A stretch of 11,684 nt of DNA from a virus (taxonomy: Duplodnaviria; Heunggongvirae; Uroviricota; Caudoviricetes): IMG/VR virus record IMGVR_UViG_2585427784_000006; one strand, written 5' to 3'. Each line of letters opens with the position of its first letter. Within the stretch, counting starts at the first letter, position 1. A model generated the notes under the pieces. The model had not been told where the DNA came from. It did not search any database and worked only from the letters and a program-made list of their open reading frames with translations. A program made the position numbers and the translations under genes. This document shows positions 1 to 8,785 of this stretch, piece by piece.

Positions 1-591
1 ATGTCTCGAATTTTTGCTTACTGTCGGATATCAACGCTGGATCAGACCACCGAAAATCAACGCCGGGAAATCGAAAGTGCAGGTTTTAAAATCAAACCTC
101 AGCAAATAATCGAAGAACACATTAGCGGCTCAGCAGCAACCAGTGAGCGTCCTGGTTTTAACCGGTTGCTTGCTCGCCTGAAATGTGGTGATCAATTGAT
201 TGTGACAAAACTGGATCGCCTTGGTTGTAATGCAATGGATATCAGGAAAACAGTGGAACAACTGACCGAAACAGGTATCAGAGTGCATTGCTTAGCATTG
301 GCTGGCATTGACCTGACCAGTCCAACAGGAAAAATGATGATGCAAGTAATTTCAGCAGTCGCTGAATTTGAACGAGACCTTTTACTTGAACGCACTCATT
401 CCGGGATAGTAAGAGCCCGCGGCGCAGGGAAACGTTTTGGTCGACCACCTGTGTTAAATGAAGAACAGAAACAGGTGGTATTCGAACGAATTAAGTCAGG
501 TGTAAGTATAAGTGCCATTGCCCGGGAATTCAAAACCTCGCGGCAAACCATTTTAAGAGCCAAAGCAAAACTTCAGACACCTGACATATAA
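1..591 (+). CDS. pinQ: Serine recombinase / DNA invertase of the Pin/Gin/Hin family
   Basis: 196-aa ORF, ATG at 1-3, TAA at 589-591. N-terminal catalytic motif YCRISTLDQ (serine nucleophile) and C-terminal helix-turn-helix region typical of small serine invertases. Lies next to a tail fibre assembly gene. Pin paralogues (pinE, pinR, pinQ) are near identical, so the Q suffix rests on the surrounding Qin-type genes. Confidence 0.9.
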
Positions 592-688
592 AAAATAATC
601 TCGGTGTGAGATGCTTTACGTCTTCCAAGCCCCCTTCCTTGCCGTAAATGGAAAGATACATCTAATTATAGAATTTATATGTTTTACC

Positions 689-1264
689 CTACGGCAGTGC
701 TGGCCATTCAATATCCTGTGCAGTTGACGTATCAACACGGTTCAGCAACACCCGATACTTTTTCCAGGCTTCCAGCAATGAGGTTTCTTCCTCCGTTGCG
801 ATTTCCAGATCTACAGCATCCTGAAGTGGCGCAATATGCTCACTGGCTACCTGCATCAGGCTGTTTTTTGTTTCTTCCGCCTCTCGGATCCGGAACAGTT
901 TTTCTGCTTCTGCATCTTTCACCCAGGCTGTGCCGTTCCACTTCTGAAACTCCCCTTCCGGCGATAACCAGGTAACATTTTCCGGTAACGGACCGAGTTC
1001 AGAAATAAATAACGCGTCCCCTGACGCTACGTCATAAACCGTTTTACCCCGATGGTCTTCATCGAGATGCCACGATGCCTTATCACTGTTGAAAACAGCC
1101 ACAAAGCCAGCAGGAATATCTGGTGGTGCAATATCGGTACTGTTTGCTGGCAGACCTGTATGAGGCGGAATATATGCGTCACCTTCACCAATAAATTCAT
1201 TAGTTCCGGCCAGCAGATTATAAATTTTTATGGTCCGTGGTTGTTCACTCATTCTGAATGCCAT
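689..1264 (-). CDS. tfaQ: Tail fibre assembly protein (Tfa family)
   Basis: Track ORF 689..1270 begins at a TTG; first ATG is at 1262-1264, giving 191 aa starting [18 protein letters not shown], which I recognise as lambdoid Tfa. Its start overlaps the end of a short upstream stf-like frame, as at stf/tfa junctions. Confidence 0.85.
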
Positions 1265-1325
1265 TATCAAGGCTGTTCAGATTGCGGATGGCATTCTCAA
1301 GCCCCTTCATCCCACACCTCTTTAC
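1245..1325 (-). pseudogene. Possible 3'-terminal remnant of a side tail fibre (stf) gene
   Basis: A 26-codon open frame ([26 protein letters not shown], stop TGA at 1245-1247) ends 15 nt inside tfa, the overlap expected of stf/tfa. Upstream it is closed by a stop at 1326-1328, directly beside the stop of the preceding head-tail gene. Positional inference only. Confidence 0.3.
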
Positions 1326-1597
1326 TCAATAAAGATCATTGGCTTACCGTTAAAACGTTCATGCCGTGTGACCGTCCATTGTTGTCCGTCATAAACAACG
1401 CGATCCCCGCGCCGTGGGCGGTATCCCGAAGAAAACACCACCAGAGAGACCGCAGGTCCGGACAGAGCATTCAGCTCTGCCAGTGTTTCTCCCGGGATCA
1501 CAGTCATATCGACATCATTAATCGAGGCTGTCTTTCCCATCTTTCTGACCGTGATCGCATCCATACGCGCTGCCAGCCGGGAAAAGGGATCAGACAT
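1322..1597 (-). CDS. Putative phage head-tail joining / tail attachment protein (gpFII-like)
   Basis: 91-aa ORF, ATG at 1595-1597, overlapping the stop of the upstream gene by 8 nt (translational coupling). Contains a PRRGDRVVYDGQQWTV segment resembling the RRGD region of lambda FII from memory. Confidence 0.5.
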   Translation of the reverse strand: MSDPFSRLAARMDAITVRKMGKTASINDVDMTVIPGETLAELNALSGPAVSLVVFSSGYRPRRGDRVVYDGQQWTVTRHERFNGKPMIFIE

Positions 1598-1913
1598 TGA
1601 GTTTTACCGGCACTTCTTCTGCACTGGTTCCGGCATCTGCCCAGACAACCCCGACCAGCGGCTCAGAGCCGCTGTTAGTCAGCTGAACTTTTCCTGACTT
1701 CAGATAAACCTTCTTACCCGTTTTCATGTCATCCGTTTTCAGCTTAGGCAGCATAAACACACCTTCGGTTATGCCGTCGCCTGTTTCTCCCTGTGGAATA
1801 TCGGTCAGCGCCACCGCAAAAACATCCCCCACCTGCACCAGATCTCCGCTGCTGATGGCTGCACTGGCAACAATCGCCACCGTTTTTCCTTCTTCTACAA
1901 AATTCTTTGCCAT
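1590..1913 (-). CDS. Small phage head-associated protein (DUF2190-like)
   Basis: Track ORF 1590..1958 begins at a TTG. ATG at 1911-1913 is preceded by GGAGA and gives 107 aa starting MAKNFVEEGKTV. Gly/Val/Thr-rich; resembles the DUF2190 family usually encoded just after a major capsid gene. Confidence 0.5.
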   Translation of the reverse strand: MAKNFVEEGKTVAIVASAAISSGDLVQVGDVFAVALTDIPQGETGDGITEGVFMLPKLKTDDMKTGKKVYLKSGKVQLTNSGSEPLVGVVWADAGTSAEEVPVKLNV

Positions 1914-1999
1914 AACTGTCTCCGCACAGCCCCGTTCAGGGGCTGATTTCAGGTACAAAAAAAGCCCTTACGGGCCATCAGAGTTGTTGTCTGCGACGT

Positions 2000-3985
2000 T
2001 TACGCCGTACATTTCACCAGGCCGCGGTGATCAACTGGCGCAACACCAGCGTCAATACGCACTTTCGTTGTCACGCCATCCACACTGAAGCCCTCCATCT
2101 GATCAATATATGGCGTATCCACACCGTTGAGATAAGCCACTTCAATCGTATCGGAGCCTTTGGACGCAGCCAGGTAGAAGGTGGTCTGGCTGTTATCATC
2201 AAGACGAGGCTCTGCAATAACGGTCGCAAAATCTTTCACCGGGTTAATAATACCGGCGTTAATGTCAGCCCCCTTGACACTTGAGGAGCGAATGACCTGG
2301 TTAGCAACAGACTCCATCGCCGTCGGTACCAGTACGAACGCAGGACGAATATTCAGATGACGCTCACCCTCTTTCTGAACGCGCATCAACTGGCGGGCTT
2401 TATCCAGCGATGCCACGTCCATTGCCGCGCTCTCCAGTACGTTTGCATGTTTCGCTTTATCGAACAGACTTACATTATCTGTGGAGATTTTCGGGTTAGA
2501 CGTCAGAATGGCATAAACCAGATCGGCAATAGTGGATTTCGCCGCACGGCCCAGCTTCATCGGGACATCGGTCAGCATATTCAGATCATCATTGATAATG
2601 GCCTGACGGGTGATACTGAACAGCTCGCCATAGGTCGCCAGTGCAATAGTGGCCTGTTTATCTCCGGTGGTGACGTATTTATATTCTGCCCCTTCACGCA
2701 CCTGACGCAGAGCACTGAAGCCCCCCATACCCACACGATGGGCAATTTTAAAATCAGACAACTGACCTTTCCGCGTCCACTGTTCATAGGTTTCAGGGGC
2801 ATCTTCCCAGCCCTGCAGAATGGCTTTGTTCGCAACATCCAGCAGAATATTACCGAAGTCAGACGTACTGTGTGTGAACGCCGCACCGACCATCTGCATC
2901 GGGTTATAACTGGAAACACCAATACCACGTTCAGTCAGTGACATACGGGCATATTCACGCAGGGTCATCCCGTTGTAGACATTATCACGTTCAGTTTTTT
3001 CAAACCCGGCGCGCGCCATCAGCGCCTGGCGGATCCCGTCCCCCACAAAATTACCGTTACCGGCATAAATATGAGCCGGGGGATTTTTATTGGATGGCGT
3101 GGACTCGCGCCCCATCTCGTTCAACAGCTTTTCGCGGGCCTGCTCCAGCGAACATTCAGGATCGGCAAGACACTGAGCCTGCAACGACTGATAGCCGGTC
3201 ATGGCATCCATAGCTGGCTGAAAATATTCACCGCAGTGCGGACATGGCCAGTACCAGCGGCGGCGGTCACCACGATTGTAAAGGGAAAGAATACCAGTCG
3301 TCGGTGGCGCTTCATGAGGCGACTTACGTCGCCATTTGCTGTCGCAGATGTCACGTCCCGGCGAGCTCTCCACCAGAGTCATCCCGGCGGACATAAATGT
3401 GGTGGTACGTTTTGAGGCCAGGGAGAAACCATCACCCTCGCTGTCGATATTCTCCGGAAAACGGTCGTAATCGGTTAAGGCGACAAACCGGTAATCCGAC
3501 GACGACATAATGTTGACCGAGGGCCAACCAATTTTAAGGAACGAGCCATCCCTGAACGTCTTATCATGGACATTATTGTCGTTACGACGTGGACTCATTC
3601 TTTTCTTTACCGCCGCACTGCTTCTGAACGTTCTGTCGAGGCGCTTTTTAGAATGCTCGCGGGCCTTATCTTCGGTCATCTGCACAACGAGCATGTCCGA
3701 AGGATCGCAAACGATGGTATAGACAATCCATCCATCGATCAGACCAATGGTCTTCCCTGTTCGCGCAGGACCAACAAAAATCACCGCATCGTATTCACGC
3801 GATGCCAGGCAGTTCATGGGCTCAATGATGTAGGGTGTCAGTTCAGGATCCCATGGCACCGAGTTACCAGCCCCCTTGGGAACACGCATGAATTTTTTAA
3901 CAGCCTCCGAAATCGGCATGCGACGTGGTGGGGAAAATCCTGCCGATATGTCCCTTCCCAAATTTCGGGCTGATGAAAAACCCAT
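2000..3985 (-). CDS. Terminase large subunit (lambda gpA family N-terminal ATPase); identity of the C-terminal half uncertain, possibly capsid-derived
   Basis: 661-aa ORF, ATG at 3983-3985 preceded by AGGAGG, TAA at 2000-2002. First ~290 aa align by eye with lambda gpA: Walker A-like VGPARTGKT and a WYWPCPHCGEY ... CLADPEC zinc-finger region. The remaining ~370 aa is Ala/Ser/Thr/Val-rich and looks capsid-like rather than nuclease-like. Confidence 0.7.
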   Translation of the reverse strand: MGFSSARNLGRDISAGFSPPRRMPISEAVKKFMRVPKGAGNSVPWDPELTPYIIEPMNCLASREYDAVIFVGPARTGKTIGLIDGWIVYTIVCDPSDMLVVQMTEDKAREHSKKRLDRTFRSSAAVKKRMSPRRNDNNVHDKTFRDGSFLKIGWPSVNIMSSSDYRFVALTDYDRFPENIDSEGDGFSLASKRTTTFMSAGMTLVESSPGRDICDSKWRRKSPHEAPPTTGILSLYNRGDRRRWYWPCPHCGEYFQPAMDAMTGYQSLQAQCLADPECSLEQAREKLLNEMGRESTPSNKNPPAHIYAGNGNFVGDGIRQALMARAGFEKTERDNVYNGMTLREYARMSLTERGIGVSSYNPMQMVGAAFTHSTSDFGNILLDVANKAILQGWEDAPETYEQWTRKGQLSDFKIAHRVGMGGFSALRQVREGAEYKYVTTGDKQATIALATYGELFSITRQAIINDDLNMLTDVPMKLGRAAKSTIADLVYAILTSNPKISTDNVSLFDKAKHANVLESAAMDVASLDKARQLMRVQKEGERHLNIRPAFVLVPTAMESVANQVIRSSSVKGADINAGIINPVKDFATVIAEPRLDDNSQTTFYLAASKGSDTIEVAYLNGVDTPYIDQMEGFSVDGVTTKVRIDAGVAPVDHRGLVKCTA

Positions 3986-3993
3986 TATTCCTC

Positions 3994-4521
3994 CTAGAGA
4001 CTCTCTCCTTCCTCATCAGGAATTAATTCAGCAGCACAAGCCTCGTAGGATTTTTCCTGAAGAGTGTATCGCAGGTCATCAATGGCCTGCTGTACAACGC
4101 CGACGGCCTGAGGAGTCAGGGCGCAATCGCGTTCAAGAACATCCGGAATTGTCTCCAGAACCTGGACGACAGCCTTTCTCATGGACGAATAGACGATGAC
4201 TACTTCATCAACTGGGATGAGTTTTCGCTGCTCCTTTTCCAGCTTGATCCTTTCATTTTCAGACTGGTACCAGTCCTTTCTCTCTTTCGGCTCCATACGG
4301 GATGGATCATGAACAGAGTCTGCTGCCTCATGCTTCACACTAAACAGGGCGGGCCCGACATGCTGCAGGGCGTAAACGGGGTTCCCCCTGACAGTCGCAG
4401 CCACAGGAGTGTTGGCCGCGAGGAGCCGTTTTTTTACTGTGTCCCGGTGAAGCCCAAAGGCCTCGGCGATTTTAAAAACACTCCAGTAATAAGCATCACC
4501 GATCCCGCTCACATTTGACAT
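3994..4521 (-). CDS. nohA: Terminase small subunit (lambda Nu1-like, NohA family)
   Basis: Two in-frame ATGs, at 4531-4533 and 4519-4521; the second has a GGAG at good spacing and gives MSNVSGIGDAYYWSVFKIAEAFGLHRDTVKKRL, an N-terminal HTH like Nu1. Stop TAG at 3994-3996 lies inside the RBS of the large-subunit gene. A cos site lies ~185 bp upstream. Confidence 0.8.
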   Translation of the reverse strand: MSNVSGIGDAYYWSVFKIAEAFGLHRDTVKKRLLAANTPVAATVRGNPVYALQHVGPALFSVKHEAADSVHDPSRMEPKERKDWYQSENERIKLEKEQRKLIPVDEVVIVYSSMRKAVVQVLETIPDVLERDCALTPQAVGVVQQAIDDLRYTLQEKSYEACAAELIPDEEGESL

Positions 4522-4533
4522 AAGCAACTCCAT

Positions 4534-4724
4534 CTGGCAGGTGAAAATCAGGTTTATTTATATATTTCAATTAATTGCAAACTGGTCTAATGACAGGGAG
4601 AAAAAAATATTGTACAGGTGAAAAGAGAAATAACTTTTAATTATCAATAAATTACCAAACATGCTGCCGCCGCCATGGAAATGCAAAAACTAGTCTTTTT
4701 CCGCGACGCTCCCGCCCCGTGGCA
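4534..4724. other. cos site: cosN-like core plus cosB-like TerS/IHF binding region
   Basis: Minus strand reads CGGGTCCTCCCAGTGGGGGTCCCTGCCACGGGGCGGGAGCGTCGCGG, close to the lambda cos junction as I recall it (...CGGGTCCTTTCCGGTG...TTACGGGGCGGCGACCTCGCGG). The 12-mer aligned to the lambda cohesive end is + 4706..4717. Between it and terS: IHF-consensus TATCAATAAATTA at 4642-4654 and two exact direct repeats CAGGTGAAAA at 4538-4547 and 4615-4624. Confidence 0.7.
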
Positions 4725-5083
4725 GGGACCCCCACTGGGAGGACCCGACAGCCTGACAACCGTGACGAGCATCTGAAACAGAGCTTTACATAATGGCATG
4801 GGGATAATTCAGAAGGACATCACAGCATGCCCACACAAATTAGTGTGAGTGTCCTGTTTCTTACTACGCGCAGGACTGACGAGCATGAGGGGAAAATACG
4901 CGAACCGAAATGCCTTATCTTCAGAAATGCAGCCGGCATCCGAACTGGACGATATTGTAAATTCACCTAAATACGAGGCATTGCTGTAGTTGAATTGCAG
5001 TACTGTATTAGCCTTACAGTGACAGAATACGATATTGACTCTGTCACTTGTGAAATGGTCAGAATGGTTAGCAGTTATGGTGA

Positions 5084-5290
5084 TCAGTCAACCACCAGGG
5101 AATAATCCTTCGTATTCTTATCGTGCTTTACTAACGCGGCCTCAATTGCCCTGAATGCTTCCAGAGATACTTGATGTTCTATACATGCAATTACAACATC
5201 CGGGTAACCCATCGAAATGGTGCTATTAAGCATAGTTTTTACACGAACCTGCTCCTGGGAGGGGGCATCAGTGTATTGATCTTTATGCAT
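5084..5290 (-). CDS. Conserved lambdoid right-arm small protein (homologue of the ~68-aa ORF near the lambda right end)
   Basis: 68-aa ORF, ATG at 5288-5290 with GGAG upstream, TGA at 5084-5086. Protein (..[46 protein letters not shown]) and the first ~150 bp downstream closely match the lambda right-end sequence as I recall it. Confidence 0.6.
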
Positions 5291-5585
5291 TTTGTCGCTC
5301 CATTCGTTTGCTCTTCACTTGCGGCTAAAAATATAACGTCAAATCACTCAGCATGAAAGAGTGAAAGTTTCAGCGCGTTTCCCTTACATAATCTGTCGTT
5401 TGTATTCTCTTCAGGCATACCGGAAAGACTAGGTATTGTCACACAACCAATACCATCGACAATCGAGATTTATATCTATTCGGTAATGTTTAAATATAAC
5501 AAAACCCCGTAAAAACGAGGTTTATGGGTAATTTGTATTGTTGAATAGCATCTGATGAGAAATTGATGCTAATACTATAAACATG

Positions 5586-5759
5586 CTAGATTAAATCAAT
5601 CTTGATATCATAGCTTTCAAGACCAGTCATTTTTTCCCGTGCAGTAAACTGGATACTGGTAACTTCTTTCCCGGTCTTTTTCTTAAGCTCAATGATTTTT
5701 TTTGTTATATATTCAGAAATATCTGCTTCTGTTTTTGTTTTTAACTCTTCAATGTTCAT
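5586..5759 (-). CDS. gnsB: GnsA/GnsB family protein
   Basis: Track ORF 5586..5852 has an upstream extension; ATG at 5757-5759 after AGAGGAA gives 57 aa MNIEELKTKTEADISEYITKKIIELKKKTGKEVTSIQFTAREKMTGLESYDIKIDLI, matching GnsA/GnsB. Confidence 0.85.
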   Translation of the reverse strand: MNIEELKTKTEADISEYITKKIIELKKKTGKEVTSIQFTAREKMTGLESYDIKIDLI

Positions 5760-5931
5760 CATTTCCTCTTTTAGTCTGTTATGACTGTCCTGGTACACAG
5801 TAGTGTCAATTATATGGAGCAAACGTATAAAAGATAAGATGAAACATCGCAATAATCAACATACGACGGTCTAAATTTCACACAAACAGATAAAGATGAT
5901 TATCATTTATTATCAATGCATTAGAATCAAA

Positions 5932-6162
5932 TCAATTCAAGAGTCTCATTGCTGCTTCCAGAATTTCTTCTGAAGTTACATGTCGATCCGCTGCTACATA
6001 AATGACTTTATGATCTCCGGTCAGAGATGGAAACCCTGCGGCCATTACAGTAAGGTATGTTTTTTCGCCATTTGGATATTCACGCATGATGGTGTTAACT
6101 CCAGTCATCGCTGGCACTACCACTGCTGGTTCAGAGTTAAAAAAAACTATGATTTTTTTCAT
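5932..6162 (-). CDS. ynfN: Small protein, YmcE/YnfN-like (cold-shock-associated partner of gns genes)
   Basis: Track ORF 5932..6204 begins at a TTG; ATG at 6160-6162 gives 76 aa starting MKKIIVFFNSEPAVV. Sits between cspI and gnsB as ynfN does in Qin. Symbol assigned from memory of length and synteny; weak RBS. Confidence 0.45.
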   Translation of the reverse strand: MKKIIVFFNSEPAVVVPAMTGVNTIMREYPNGEKTYLTVMAAGFPSLTGDHKVIYVAADRHVTSEEILEAAMRLLN

Positions 6163-6433
6163 GATGTTACCGTAGTATGTGAGTATCCATCGAATAGATA
6201 CCAAGCAAAAAAGCTCCCGAAGGAGCCTTCATTTTCACTTTTTTAAATCCAACGACAGACGGCTGGCATTTAAGTATTGTGAAATATTATCAAATGTAAT
6301 CATCATTGATTTACAAAAGATACATTTTGCCCCGAAAGGATTCATGTCAGAAACATCAAAAGATGATGTTCTATACTGGGAACCATGACAACACGGGCAT
6401 CTAAAGTGAATATGGTTTGTAATATTGTCTACC

Positions 6434-6646
6434 TCAAAGCGCCACTACATGAACAGCGGCAGGACCTTTAGGTCCGTTCTCAATACCAAATTCAACTTCC
6501 TGATTCTCAGTTAATGTTTTGAAATCGTTGCTCTGAATTGCTGAGAAATGGACAAACACATCTTTGCTGCCATCTTTCGGCGTGATGAAACCAAAACCTT
6601 TTTCAGGGTTAAACCATTTCACTAAACCAGTCATTTTGTTAGACAT
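6434..6646 (-). CDS. cspI: Cold shock protein (CspA family)
   Basis: 70-aa [41 protein letters not shown]... with RNP1 (KGFGFI) and RNP2 (VFVHF) motifs. ATG at 6644-6646 in an AAAAGGTAATAAT-ATG context typical of cspA-family genes. Sequence matches my memory of CspI. Confidence 0.9.
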
Positions 6647-7009
6647 AATTATTACCTTTTGAAGAAATTAGCCCTTGGGCAGAATGGTCCGAAAAAAAAT
6701 ATCAGAGAGAAAAACCAACAAGGAAATCTCAAGAGGTACAAATAATAAAATTATAACAATGACTGCTTCAGATAAATTTGTAACAAACCAGAACACCATT
6801 AACGCATGATTAACCACCCATAGCAAGGATTACTTTTGTAAAGAAAAAAACAGCAATGAAAGAATAGCTTTATTTATTAATAATAACGTGTCATTCTGAT
6901 TAAGACCTTTTATCTTACCCTTAAGATTTCAGGAATTTTGGCTCATGGAAGAGTCCTTTTTATTTAAATTTTACATTCCGCGATGTAAATGTTCCGATTT
7001 AATATTACC

Positions 7010-8033
<1,024 letters not shown>

Positions 8034-8037
<4 letters not shown>

Positions 8038-8345
8038 ATATATTTATGATGAGGACGCTCGTGCTTATTGGCAGGATTTTCAATCTTAAAGGAGTACTGA
8101 TGCTGCAGATAAGACTCAACTTTTTCTGACAATTTTTCTGCTACTTCCAGGAAGACTTGCCGGACGCTCCTTCTGGCTGCTGCCTCATAAAACTCCAGCG
8201 CAGCTCCTTCAACACGGTCCATGGCGACATCCAGGTCAAAAATTTCACCGTCAAAGCGTTCCTTGTCCTGTAAGGCTACAGTTACCGTAACTTTATTCTC
8301 AAAATTACGGACTCCTTTCACAACCAGTTCATAGTCTTGAGTCAT
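8034..8345 (-). CDS. ydfR: YdfR-family protein of unknown function, encoded between holin and endolysin
   Basis: 103-aa ORF MTQDYELVVKGVRNFENKVTV..., ATG at 8343-8345 preceded by GAGGAGAG, stop overlapping the endolysin start. Matches my memory of K-12 YdfR. Confidence 0.75.
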
Positions 8346-8349
8346 TGGA

Positions 8350-8565
8350 TTACTCTCCTCTCGCAGCCTTACGCCTGTCTTCTTTAATCTTGAAATAAAG
8401 ATTTGTCAGATACGTCAGCAGGCCAAAAACCAGGCTACCCAGCACACCGATTGCAGCCCACTGTGACGGAGTTACTTTATCGAGTAACTGCAATGCCCAG
8501 AAACCAGCATTCCCCGCCGATGTGCCATAGGCAACACCTGTTGTTAACTTATCCATTGATTTCAT
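8350..8565 (-). CDS. essQ: Class II holin (S21-like pinholin)
   Basis: Track ORF 8350..8643 has an upstream extension; ATG at 8563-8565 preceded by GGTGAGGA gives 71 aa [71 protein letters not shown] with two transmembrane segments and a basic C-terminus. Pairs with the SAR endolysin. Confidence 0.85.
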
Positions 8566-8785
8566 ATCCTCACCCCGATGTACACGGATGGTGCAATATG
8601 TTTGAAAAAGATCGGAGTCTACGGGGTAGTTTTGACAGCACACGTTGTTCTCAACGGCGCTAAAGAAACATACACATTAAAAATGTGAGTAATTATTTTG
8701 AAAGAAAGTCATATATAAAATAATAATACGAGAAATGTTTTCATATTTAGTGTACTGTATACGGCCATTTATACAGGAAAAGCCT

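Follow-up and report, generated by a model that had tools for sequence, protein, structure and literature searches.

Why should a gene annotated as an invertase stand at the end of a prophage with nothing beside it to invert? The question is raised by the virus record IMGVR_UViG_2585427784_000006, a stretch of 11,684 nucleotides (here called the window, by which the whole stretch is meant) that opens with a gene of the pinQ/pinR type, encoding a small serine recombinase and converging on a tail-fibre assembly gene. A preliminary description of this DNA had taken the gene for a Pin/Gin/Cin-type invertase whose invertible segment was either lost or upstream of position 1, and had pointed to a Fis-like palindrome inside it as a possible part of a recombinational enhancer. 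The comparisons set out below lead to a different answer: most probably pinQ and pinR form the prophage branch of a resolvase clade, have no adjoining invertible segment, and carry a Fis-like element that is a by-product of coding.

Gene identity and the search for an invertible segment

The protein encoded at 1-591 has the architecture of a small serine recombinase (PF00239 and PF02796), with an N-terminal catalytic domain (Pfam Resolvase, 3e-36, 125 bits) and a C-terminal helix-turn-helix (HTH) domain (HTH_7, 3.8e-11, 43 bits). Its best sequence match in the PDB is Gin (105 bits), Tn3/gamma-delta resolvase reaching 82 bits, and every NCBIfam match fell far under its cut-off and was uninformative for naming. 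At the nucleotide level, genes annotated pinQ or pinR match bases 1-700 with 99-100% identity; a match exists in 2844 of 5426 complete E. coli genomes, with 2640 records at least 99% identical, and the encoded protein differs from PinR of the K-12 Rac prophage by a single residue. By this identity and by the ynfT-ydfK-pin/tfa synteny at a Qin/Rac-type prophage end, the upstream half of which is taken from relatives, the gene at 1-591 is the known orphan PinQ/PinR recombinase. The orphan state itself, meaning the lack of an adjoining invertible segment, is already published and not new: PinQ does not invert DNA beside itself, and inversions detected by BLAST were found only in the e14 prophage and not in Qin or Rac (Kirigo et al., NAR 2025; PMC12529663). 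It is also ordinary, pinQ and pinR having long been annotated, and what is worth following is the assignment to a family with its own res site and the change of a catalytic arginine to cysteine.

The search for recombination sites was run with e14 (stfP-tfaP / tfaE-stfE / pinE), D108 (G segment / gin) and D6 (cin / C segment) as positive controls. Crossover sites of the Fis/enhancer-dependent (Din) invertases were sought as two 26-bp sites of the form TTNTCNNAAACC-NN-GGTTTNNGANAA, inverted and flanking a segment beside the gene. Both sites were recovered in each of the three controls, and none was found in the window or in the loci L001, L034, L002 and L007. Within the window, AAACCNNGGTTT with up to two mismatches occurs six times against 6.5 expected and never within 1-1300, and neither the 26-bp Din consensus TTNTCNNAAACCNNGGTTTNNGANAA nor the e14 pix repeat has a match at up to three mismatches, in agreement with the earlier statement that no gix-, pix- or cix-like site is present. 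Allowing up to four mismatches to the Din consensus across 410 kb of fetched loci returned only the three controls and one four-mismatch singleton, as expected by chance. A scan for inverted repeats recovers the control sites beside their genes (pix, 21 bp; gix, 34 bp; cix, at least 80 bp); in the E. coli PinQ/PinR loci examined it gave only chance-level repeats of 15-18 bp, and K-12 Rac, in which stfR is intact, holds one inverted repeat of at least 16 bp compared with 1.07 in shuffled sequences. Candidate repeats with one copy in the pin region and the other in stf, tfa or the DNA upstream were likewise at chance level, 14-18 bp, in K-12 Rac, A0 34/86, E. ruysiae and HannyBb and were discarded, as was the possibility of a Din site between pin and tfa, corresponding to the cixL that follows cin in P1; none was found there.

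The DNA upstream of the gene was judged from copies at least 99% identical to it, among them copies with intact stf and an intact phage. These are free of any Din-type site over 8 kb upstream and 12 kb downstream, the former well beyond the roughly 3 kb over which a check for gix-like repeats had been suggested. Upstream of pin they carry ydfK (ynaE), ynfT (ynaM) and then the prophage/host junction, at which the gene is a truncated ydfJ in Qin and uspF in Rac. In phage HannyBb, which is 45 kb long and apparently intact, a 99.5% identical gene is found at the corresponding position, with the tail-fibre module on one side and attP-int-xis on the other, and because an apparently intact phage is arranged alike, the layout is ancestral and not the product of a deletion. 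The site and inverted-repeat scans thus bear out that pin has no invertible segment beside it, and tblastn confirms that the window has a single tfa, but the proposal that a segment was lost or lies upstream of position 1 is contradicted by the genes found there and by the intact phage. On the scheme proposed here there would be no adjoining invertible segment to find, and none would have been lost from the tail-fibre region.

A Gin/Hin/Pin-type invertase whose segment was deleted or lies just upstream, and whose enhancer includes 82-98 as one Fis site, nevertheless draws some plausibility from the position of the gene beside tail-fibre genes and from the P1-type order of cin, cixL and C segment, which makes a site 3' of pin conceivable. 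Set against the empty scans over 8 kb upstream and 12 kb downstream and the protein and Fis-site comparisons that follow, it is given almost no credence.

The Fis-like element and the enhancer-dependent invertases

PinE, Gin, Cin and Hin share 65-82% identity with one another but only 34.8-37.5% with PinQ, which stands outside the high mutual identity of about 65-80% that marks Din proteins. In the DNA-binding region, comprising the arm and HTH, its identity to them is 17-22%. The sequences of PinE, Gin and Cin came from database loci, and the numbering of the Hin sequence agrees with that of PMC3798978. Residues uniquely conserved in Fis/enhancer-dependent invertases are Hin K47, R48 and K51 in helix B and Q151, R154 and L155 in helix 1 of the DNA-binding domain (DBD), which are implicated in enhancer/Fis contact (McLean et al., PMC3798978). 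The corresponding residues of PinQ are N54, R55, A58, V159, E162 and R163, so that five of the six differ, and helix B reads N-R-D in 73 of 120 relatives. With identities of 35-38% and without the signature residues, PinQ is not, as far as protein comparison can tell, an invertase of the Gin/Hin/Cin/PinE type, and the initial assignment to that type does not hold. The name 'Pin invertase' is misleading for a member of a plasmid-type resolvase clade that has a res architecture peculiar to it.

The palindrome GGTTTTAAAATCAAACC lies at 82-98 as first reported; it is 17 bp long, the length of 15 bp belonging to its G...C core at 83-97. Its resemblance in position to the enhancers of Hin and Gin holds roughly, the element being 6-12 bp from the aligned distal Fis site of the Din genes (homologous position about 77-91). 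This proximity speaks for an enhancer, as does the 15-mer, which matches 10 of the 11 specified positions of the Fis consensus. Fis-like 15-mers are, however, at chance density: 32 in the window lie within one mismatch of GNNYRWWWWWYRNNC against 31.2 expected, and perfect palindromes with 5-bp arms number 20 with a 7-nt loop and 199 with loops of 3-11 nt. The genes pinE, gin and cin have in common a consensus-matching pair of Fis sites with centres at 30 and 78, 48 bp apart, a spacing that is established for Hin and Gin. The PinQ element, centred at 90, has no partner scoring at least 8/11 at centres 40-44 or 136-140 (46-50 bp to either side), and the 5' coding region accordingly lacks the two Fis sites about 48 bp apart that make up an enhancer. 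Its core is flanked by G at -8 (position 82) and C at +8 (position 98), and the left half is without a pyrimidine-purine step at -4/-3. In the INV context, G at +/-8 inhibits Fis binding and raises the dissociation constant from 33 to 250 nM (Hancock et al., PMC4784862).

Nor is the element conserved. It reads GGTTTTAACATCAAATC in an allele of 90% nucleotide identity and GGTTTTAACGTCAGACC in a plasmid allele of 83% and is lost in both, and more distant homologues keep one to three of the five arm pairs with Fis scores of 6-9/11, so that no homologue at or below 90% nucleotide identity retains the palindrome. The peptide AGFKIKPQ is confined, within the 120 nearest protein clusters, to those of PinQ/PinR, the majority having AGFNVRPQ; the codons at 82-98 are AT-rich and fall within a four-residue insertion relative to the Din proteins. 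A literature search for chromatin immunoprecipitation or footprint data for Fis on pinQ or pinR brought up no relevant paper. The element is judged to be a by-product of AT-rich G-F-K-I-K-P codons, with no predicted enhancer role, and the Fis-enhancer reading is not supported in view of chance density, unfavourable +/-8 flanks, missing partner, lack of conservation and absent contact residues.

The resolvase clade, its res-like array and residue 76

The nearest homologues of PinQ, at 76-86% identity, are 'recombinase/resolvase' genes found mostly on conjugative plasmids of E. coli, Salmonella, Klebsiella, Providencia, Vibrio and Shewanella; the module with Arg at position 76 is present on 291 PLSDB plasmids, 242 of them conjugative. 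Alignment of the 150 bp 5' of the ATG from nine loci revealed, in seven non-prophage loci (L006, L017-L021 and L023), the half-site TGTMCGAAA at -115, -98, -75, -52, -34 and -21. The half-sites at -115(+) and -98(-) form a 26-bp dyad, TGTCCGAAA-N8-TTTCGGACA, which occurs as an exact site I in L006 (array at L006 4886-4990), those at -75(+) and -52(-) form a 32-bp dyad, and those at -34 and -21 a site of about 22 bp, with TATAAT between the second and third subsites. Three to eight half-sites lie within 170 bp upstream of the genes, compared with 0.2-0.5 per kb elsewhere. The res subsites of Tn3 measure 28, 34 and 25 bp, and the half-site TGTCCGAAA resembles the gamma-delta sequence TGTCCGATAA. 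From this geometry we infer that the array is a res of the Tn3/gamma-delta type, which is made up of three dimer-binding sites, site I being catalytic and sites II and III accessory (PMC2794168). A literature search for the TGTCCGAAA half-site returned only noise.

All three subsites are present in the non-prophage relatives and not in the Qin, Rac and HannyBb copies that are at least 99% identical to the window. In these the upstream DNA (L001 7870-8000 for the Qin type) is still alignable, its half-sites carry one to five mismatches, and a single one, the promoter-proximal TATACGAAA, survives at no more than one mismatch. What lies upstream of window position 1 would be a decayed res and not a gix site, which echoes in part the initial guess that a segment might lie there. 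As a target for PinQ, the site I dyad of the res type was absent from the window, e14 and Rac at up to three mismatches.

The active site has changed as well. Of the catalytic set of Tn3 resolvase (Y6, R8, S10, D36, R68 and R71), five positions were compared, D36 not being among them: PinQ has Y7, R9, S11 and R73, but R71 is replaced by Cys76 and the set is incomplete. The KLDRLGR of Gin, Hin, Cin, PinE and the gamma-delta/Tn3 resolvases is thereby KLDRLGCN in PinQ. Position 76 is Arg in 115 of the 120 nearest clusters and Cys in the remaining five, which are the prophage PinQ/PinR clusters and their 84-90% variant, and K-12 PinR also has Cys76. Tn3 resolvase carrying R71A or R71K no longer recombines, and its cleavage is about 1000-fold lower (PMC2794168). 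PinQ departs from residues conserved in at least 90% of relatives at 17 positions, all but one of them within the N-terminal 140 residues, while 40 of the 48 residues of arm and HTH match the family majority. The ratio of nonsynonymous to synonymous substitution rates (dN/dS) is 0.37 between two Cys-bearing alleles and 0.16 against an Arg-bearing plasmid allele, values from which selection appears relaxed but not absent.

Since the res is decayed and the R71 position is Cys, the resolvase function has probably been lost in the Qin/Rac lineage. Lambdoid prophages of the Qin/Rac type would have captured a resolvase-clade recombinase in their terminal module, where ynfT-ydfK-pin converges on tfa-stf, and in this prophage branch its own res would have decayed and the R71-equivalent Arg changed to Cys, with the DNA-binding domain kept.

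Several side observations concern these upstream regions and relatives. Direct repeats of TTTTCCAC lie at L001 7700-7760, just 3' of ydfK and 5' of the decayed res region. In Erwinia oleae (L021 1250-2649), two divergent PinQ-like paralogues stand back to back, and the 200-bp intergenic region that they share holds mirrored res-like half-sites, eight within 170 bp. Tn3-type 38-bp terminal repeats (GGGGTCCGCTTGGAAA...CGCTAAG) were seen at PinQ-like genes at L019 5253-5290 and at L026 7876-7914 and 11229-11267. The idea that PinQ relatives travel as cargo of Tn3-family transposons, based on 38-bp GGGG...TAAG repeats in Budvicia and Photorhabdus, was withdrawn: the Photorhabdus repeat interrupts the PinQ-like gene near codon 160, and in Budvicia the PinQ-like gene is a pseudogene just inside one repeat, with a large neighbouring open reading frame (ORF) that encodes an autotransporter and not TnpA.

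PinQ in trans, prophage context and related systems

The only activity reported for PinQ is the stimulation in trans of P-segment inversion in e14. Over-production of PinQ is reported to drive inversion of the 1797-bp P segment, which yields a chimeric StfE2 that blocks adsorption of T2; T2 survivors carry the 1797-bp inversion, no effect is seen when stfP, stfE or e14 is deleted, and the P segment is locked in a pinE deletion (Kirigo et al., 2025; PMC12529663).

Some of the evidence weighs against a captured resolvase that has lost its function. With plasmid-borne over-production of pinQ, P-segment inversion rises from about 30% to 88%, and it is lowered by deletion of pinQ (PMC12529663), a result which argues that PinQ, for all its Cys76 and its DNA-binding domain of the resolvase type, does act on Din-type sites. 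The dN/dS of 0.37 suggests a gene still under some selection, not a plain pseudogene. Finally, the window starts at the ATG, so that a decayed res is deduced for it from the copies at least 99% identical to it.

The first of these points would be met by an active invertase that works in trans and directly recombines e14 pix, and perhaps other Din sites, as an anti-phage switch. The inversion in T2 survivors and its response to pinQ plasmid and deletion favour it, and with Din-type invertase genes or sites in roughly every second E. coli genome, PinQ would frequently have a target. However, a search of the text of Kirigo et al. found neither a catalytic-serine mutant control nor a test of PinQ over-expression free of pinE (PMC12529663), and an inversion frequency of 88% exceeds the roughly 50:50 that would be expected of a simple invertase, unless selection acts. 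The DNA-binding domain resembles that of relatives with TGTMCGAAA dyads, which are unlike pix. Direct catalysis at pix is doubtful because of Cys76, this resolvase-type domain and the absence of TGTMCGAAA dyads from e14; it must be called uncertain, and a PinQ that itself inverts DNA in trans is, on balance, rather unlikely.

Alternatively, PinQ/PinR might be a former resolvase that is kept as a non-catalytic DNA-binding protein, either an autoregulator or a modulator biasing the inversion catalysed by PinE. The restriction of Cys76 to the prophage lineage, the concentration of departures in the catalytic half with arm and HTH retained, the decay of res save for the promoter-proximal half-site, a dN/dS below 1 and the locked P segment of the pinE deletion are all in line with such a role. 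Against it stands that Tn3 R71 mutants keep trace cleavage, so that weak activity is conceivable, and that the selection signal may reflect the recent spread of near-identical prophage copies; the role is accordingly put forward as tentative. It is with similar reserve that we consider a prophage lineage that lost both the catalytic Arg and its own res, kept a resolvase-type DNA-binding domain under purifying selection, and influences P-segment inversion indirectly and not through PinQ chemistry at pix. PinQ is most likely a captured resolvase-clade protein, any real activity of which is exerted in trans or is non-catalytic. With Arg changed to Cys and the res decayed, there are concrete grounds, open to experiment, for looking again at whether PinQ itself catalyses inversion of the e14 P segment, as has been claimed.

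The features at this end of the window are collected in Table 1. A tblastn search found no stf homologue in the window and no match to StfR; the tail-fibre gene is wholly absent, all tail genes are gone, and homology is lost directly after the start of tfaQ, the mechanically called ORF of which extends to 1270 from a TTG start on the minus strand. A 661-residue ORF at 2000-3985 (-) joins the ATPase domain of terminase gpA (residues 40-263) to a phage major capsid domain (363-658) and is evidently an in-frame deletion fusion inside a Qin remnant. From 4000 to 11684 the window matches the Qin cryptic prophage at 99% identity (DUF1441, rzpQ, rrrQ, ydfT and ydfU), and by this homology the window prophage is a heavily deleted cryptic remnant of the Qin type. 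Among complete E. coli RefSeq genomes none holds at least 80% of window 1-4000 in one place, and the deletion pattern that joins tfaQ (at about 1267) to the Gifsy-2-family remnant at 1322-1597 appears to be rare.

Table 1. Features of the first 1,321 positions of the window, with strand and evidence.
Position	Strand	Feature	Evidence
1..591	+	pinQ/pinR-type small serine recombinase gene, intact ORF, 196 aa	Pfam Resolvase and HTH_7; copies at least 99% identical
31..33	+	Ser11 codon, catalytic serine (Hin S10, Tn3 S10)	Invariant column of PinQ-family/Din protein alignment
82..98	+	Palindrome GGTTT-N7-AAACC, Fis-like 15-mer core 83-97; encodes G28-F29-K30-I31-K32-P33	Sequence, alignments
226..228	+	Cys76 codon TGT, at the catalytic Arg71 position of Tn3/gamma-delta resolvase (Hin R69)	Alignments
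592..688		Convergent pin-tfa spacer; no Din-type or res-type recombination site, no terminator-like site	Pattern scans
689..1264	-	tfaQ tail-fibre assembly gene, sole tfa of the window	Pfam Caudo_TAP 3.2e-44; RefSeq tfaQ coordinates in L001; tblastn
1265..1321		Deletion junction; standard Qin/Rac stf homology ends at about 1267, tfaQ adjoins a head-tail (Gifsy-2 family) gene remnant	Alignment; Pfam on 1322-1597

Further observations concern variation and distribution of the gene. The window protein has Ala101 (codon at 301-303) where K-12 PinR and all of the 115 Arg76 relatives have Gly (CLALGG to CLALAG). Frameshifted pseudogene copies of pin were seen in Shigella flexneri SFBU0723 (L027 8001-8587) and E. 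coli ECGI0523 (L028 8001-8583), each of which also has an intact copy in its genome. Short contigs assigned to metagenome-assembled genomes of Alistipes, Draconibacterium and Caldithrix (L009, L012 and L013) also carry genes 98-99% identical to E. coli pinQ, most simply as contaminating E. coli DNA or through mis-binning.

Among known systems, the closest are PinQ of Qin and PinR of Rac in K-12, with which the window shares the synteny of ynfT/ynaM, ydfK/ynaE, pin and a convergent tfa-stf, and which both have the palindrome and Cys76; the window differs from them in the deletion of the adjoining stf and all tail genes and in Ala101 of its protein. With Hin, Gin, Cin and PinE, PinQ has in common the small serine recombinase fold, the C-terminal HTH, carriage on a prophage and a place beside tail-fibre genes, but it lacks their 26-bp crossover sites, their two-site enhancer and the signature of helix B and DBD helix 1, and has four additional residues at the palindrome. 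Compared with Tn3/gamma-delta resolvase, the similarity of the proteins is modest, no consistently linked transposase was seen for the PinQ clade, and in the Qin/Rac lineage the res is decayed and the R71 position is Cys; yet it is with this system that the non-prophage members of the clade share three dyad subsites directly upstream of the gene, in the order medium, long and short (about 26, 32 and 22 bp).

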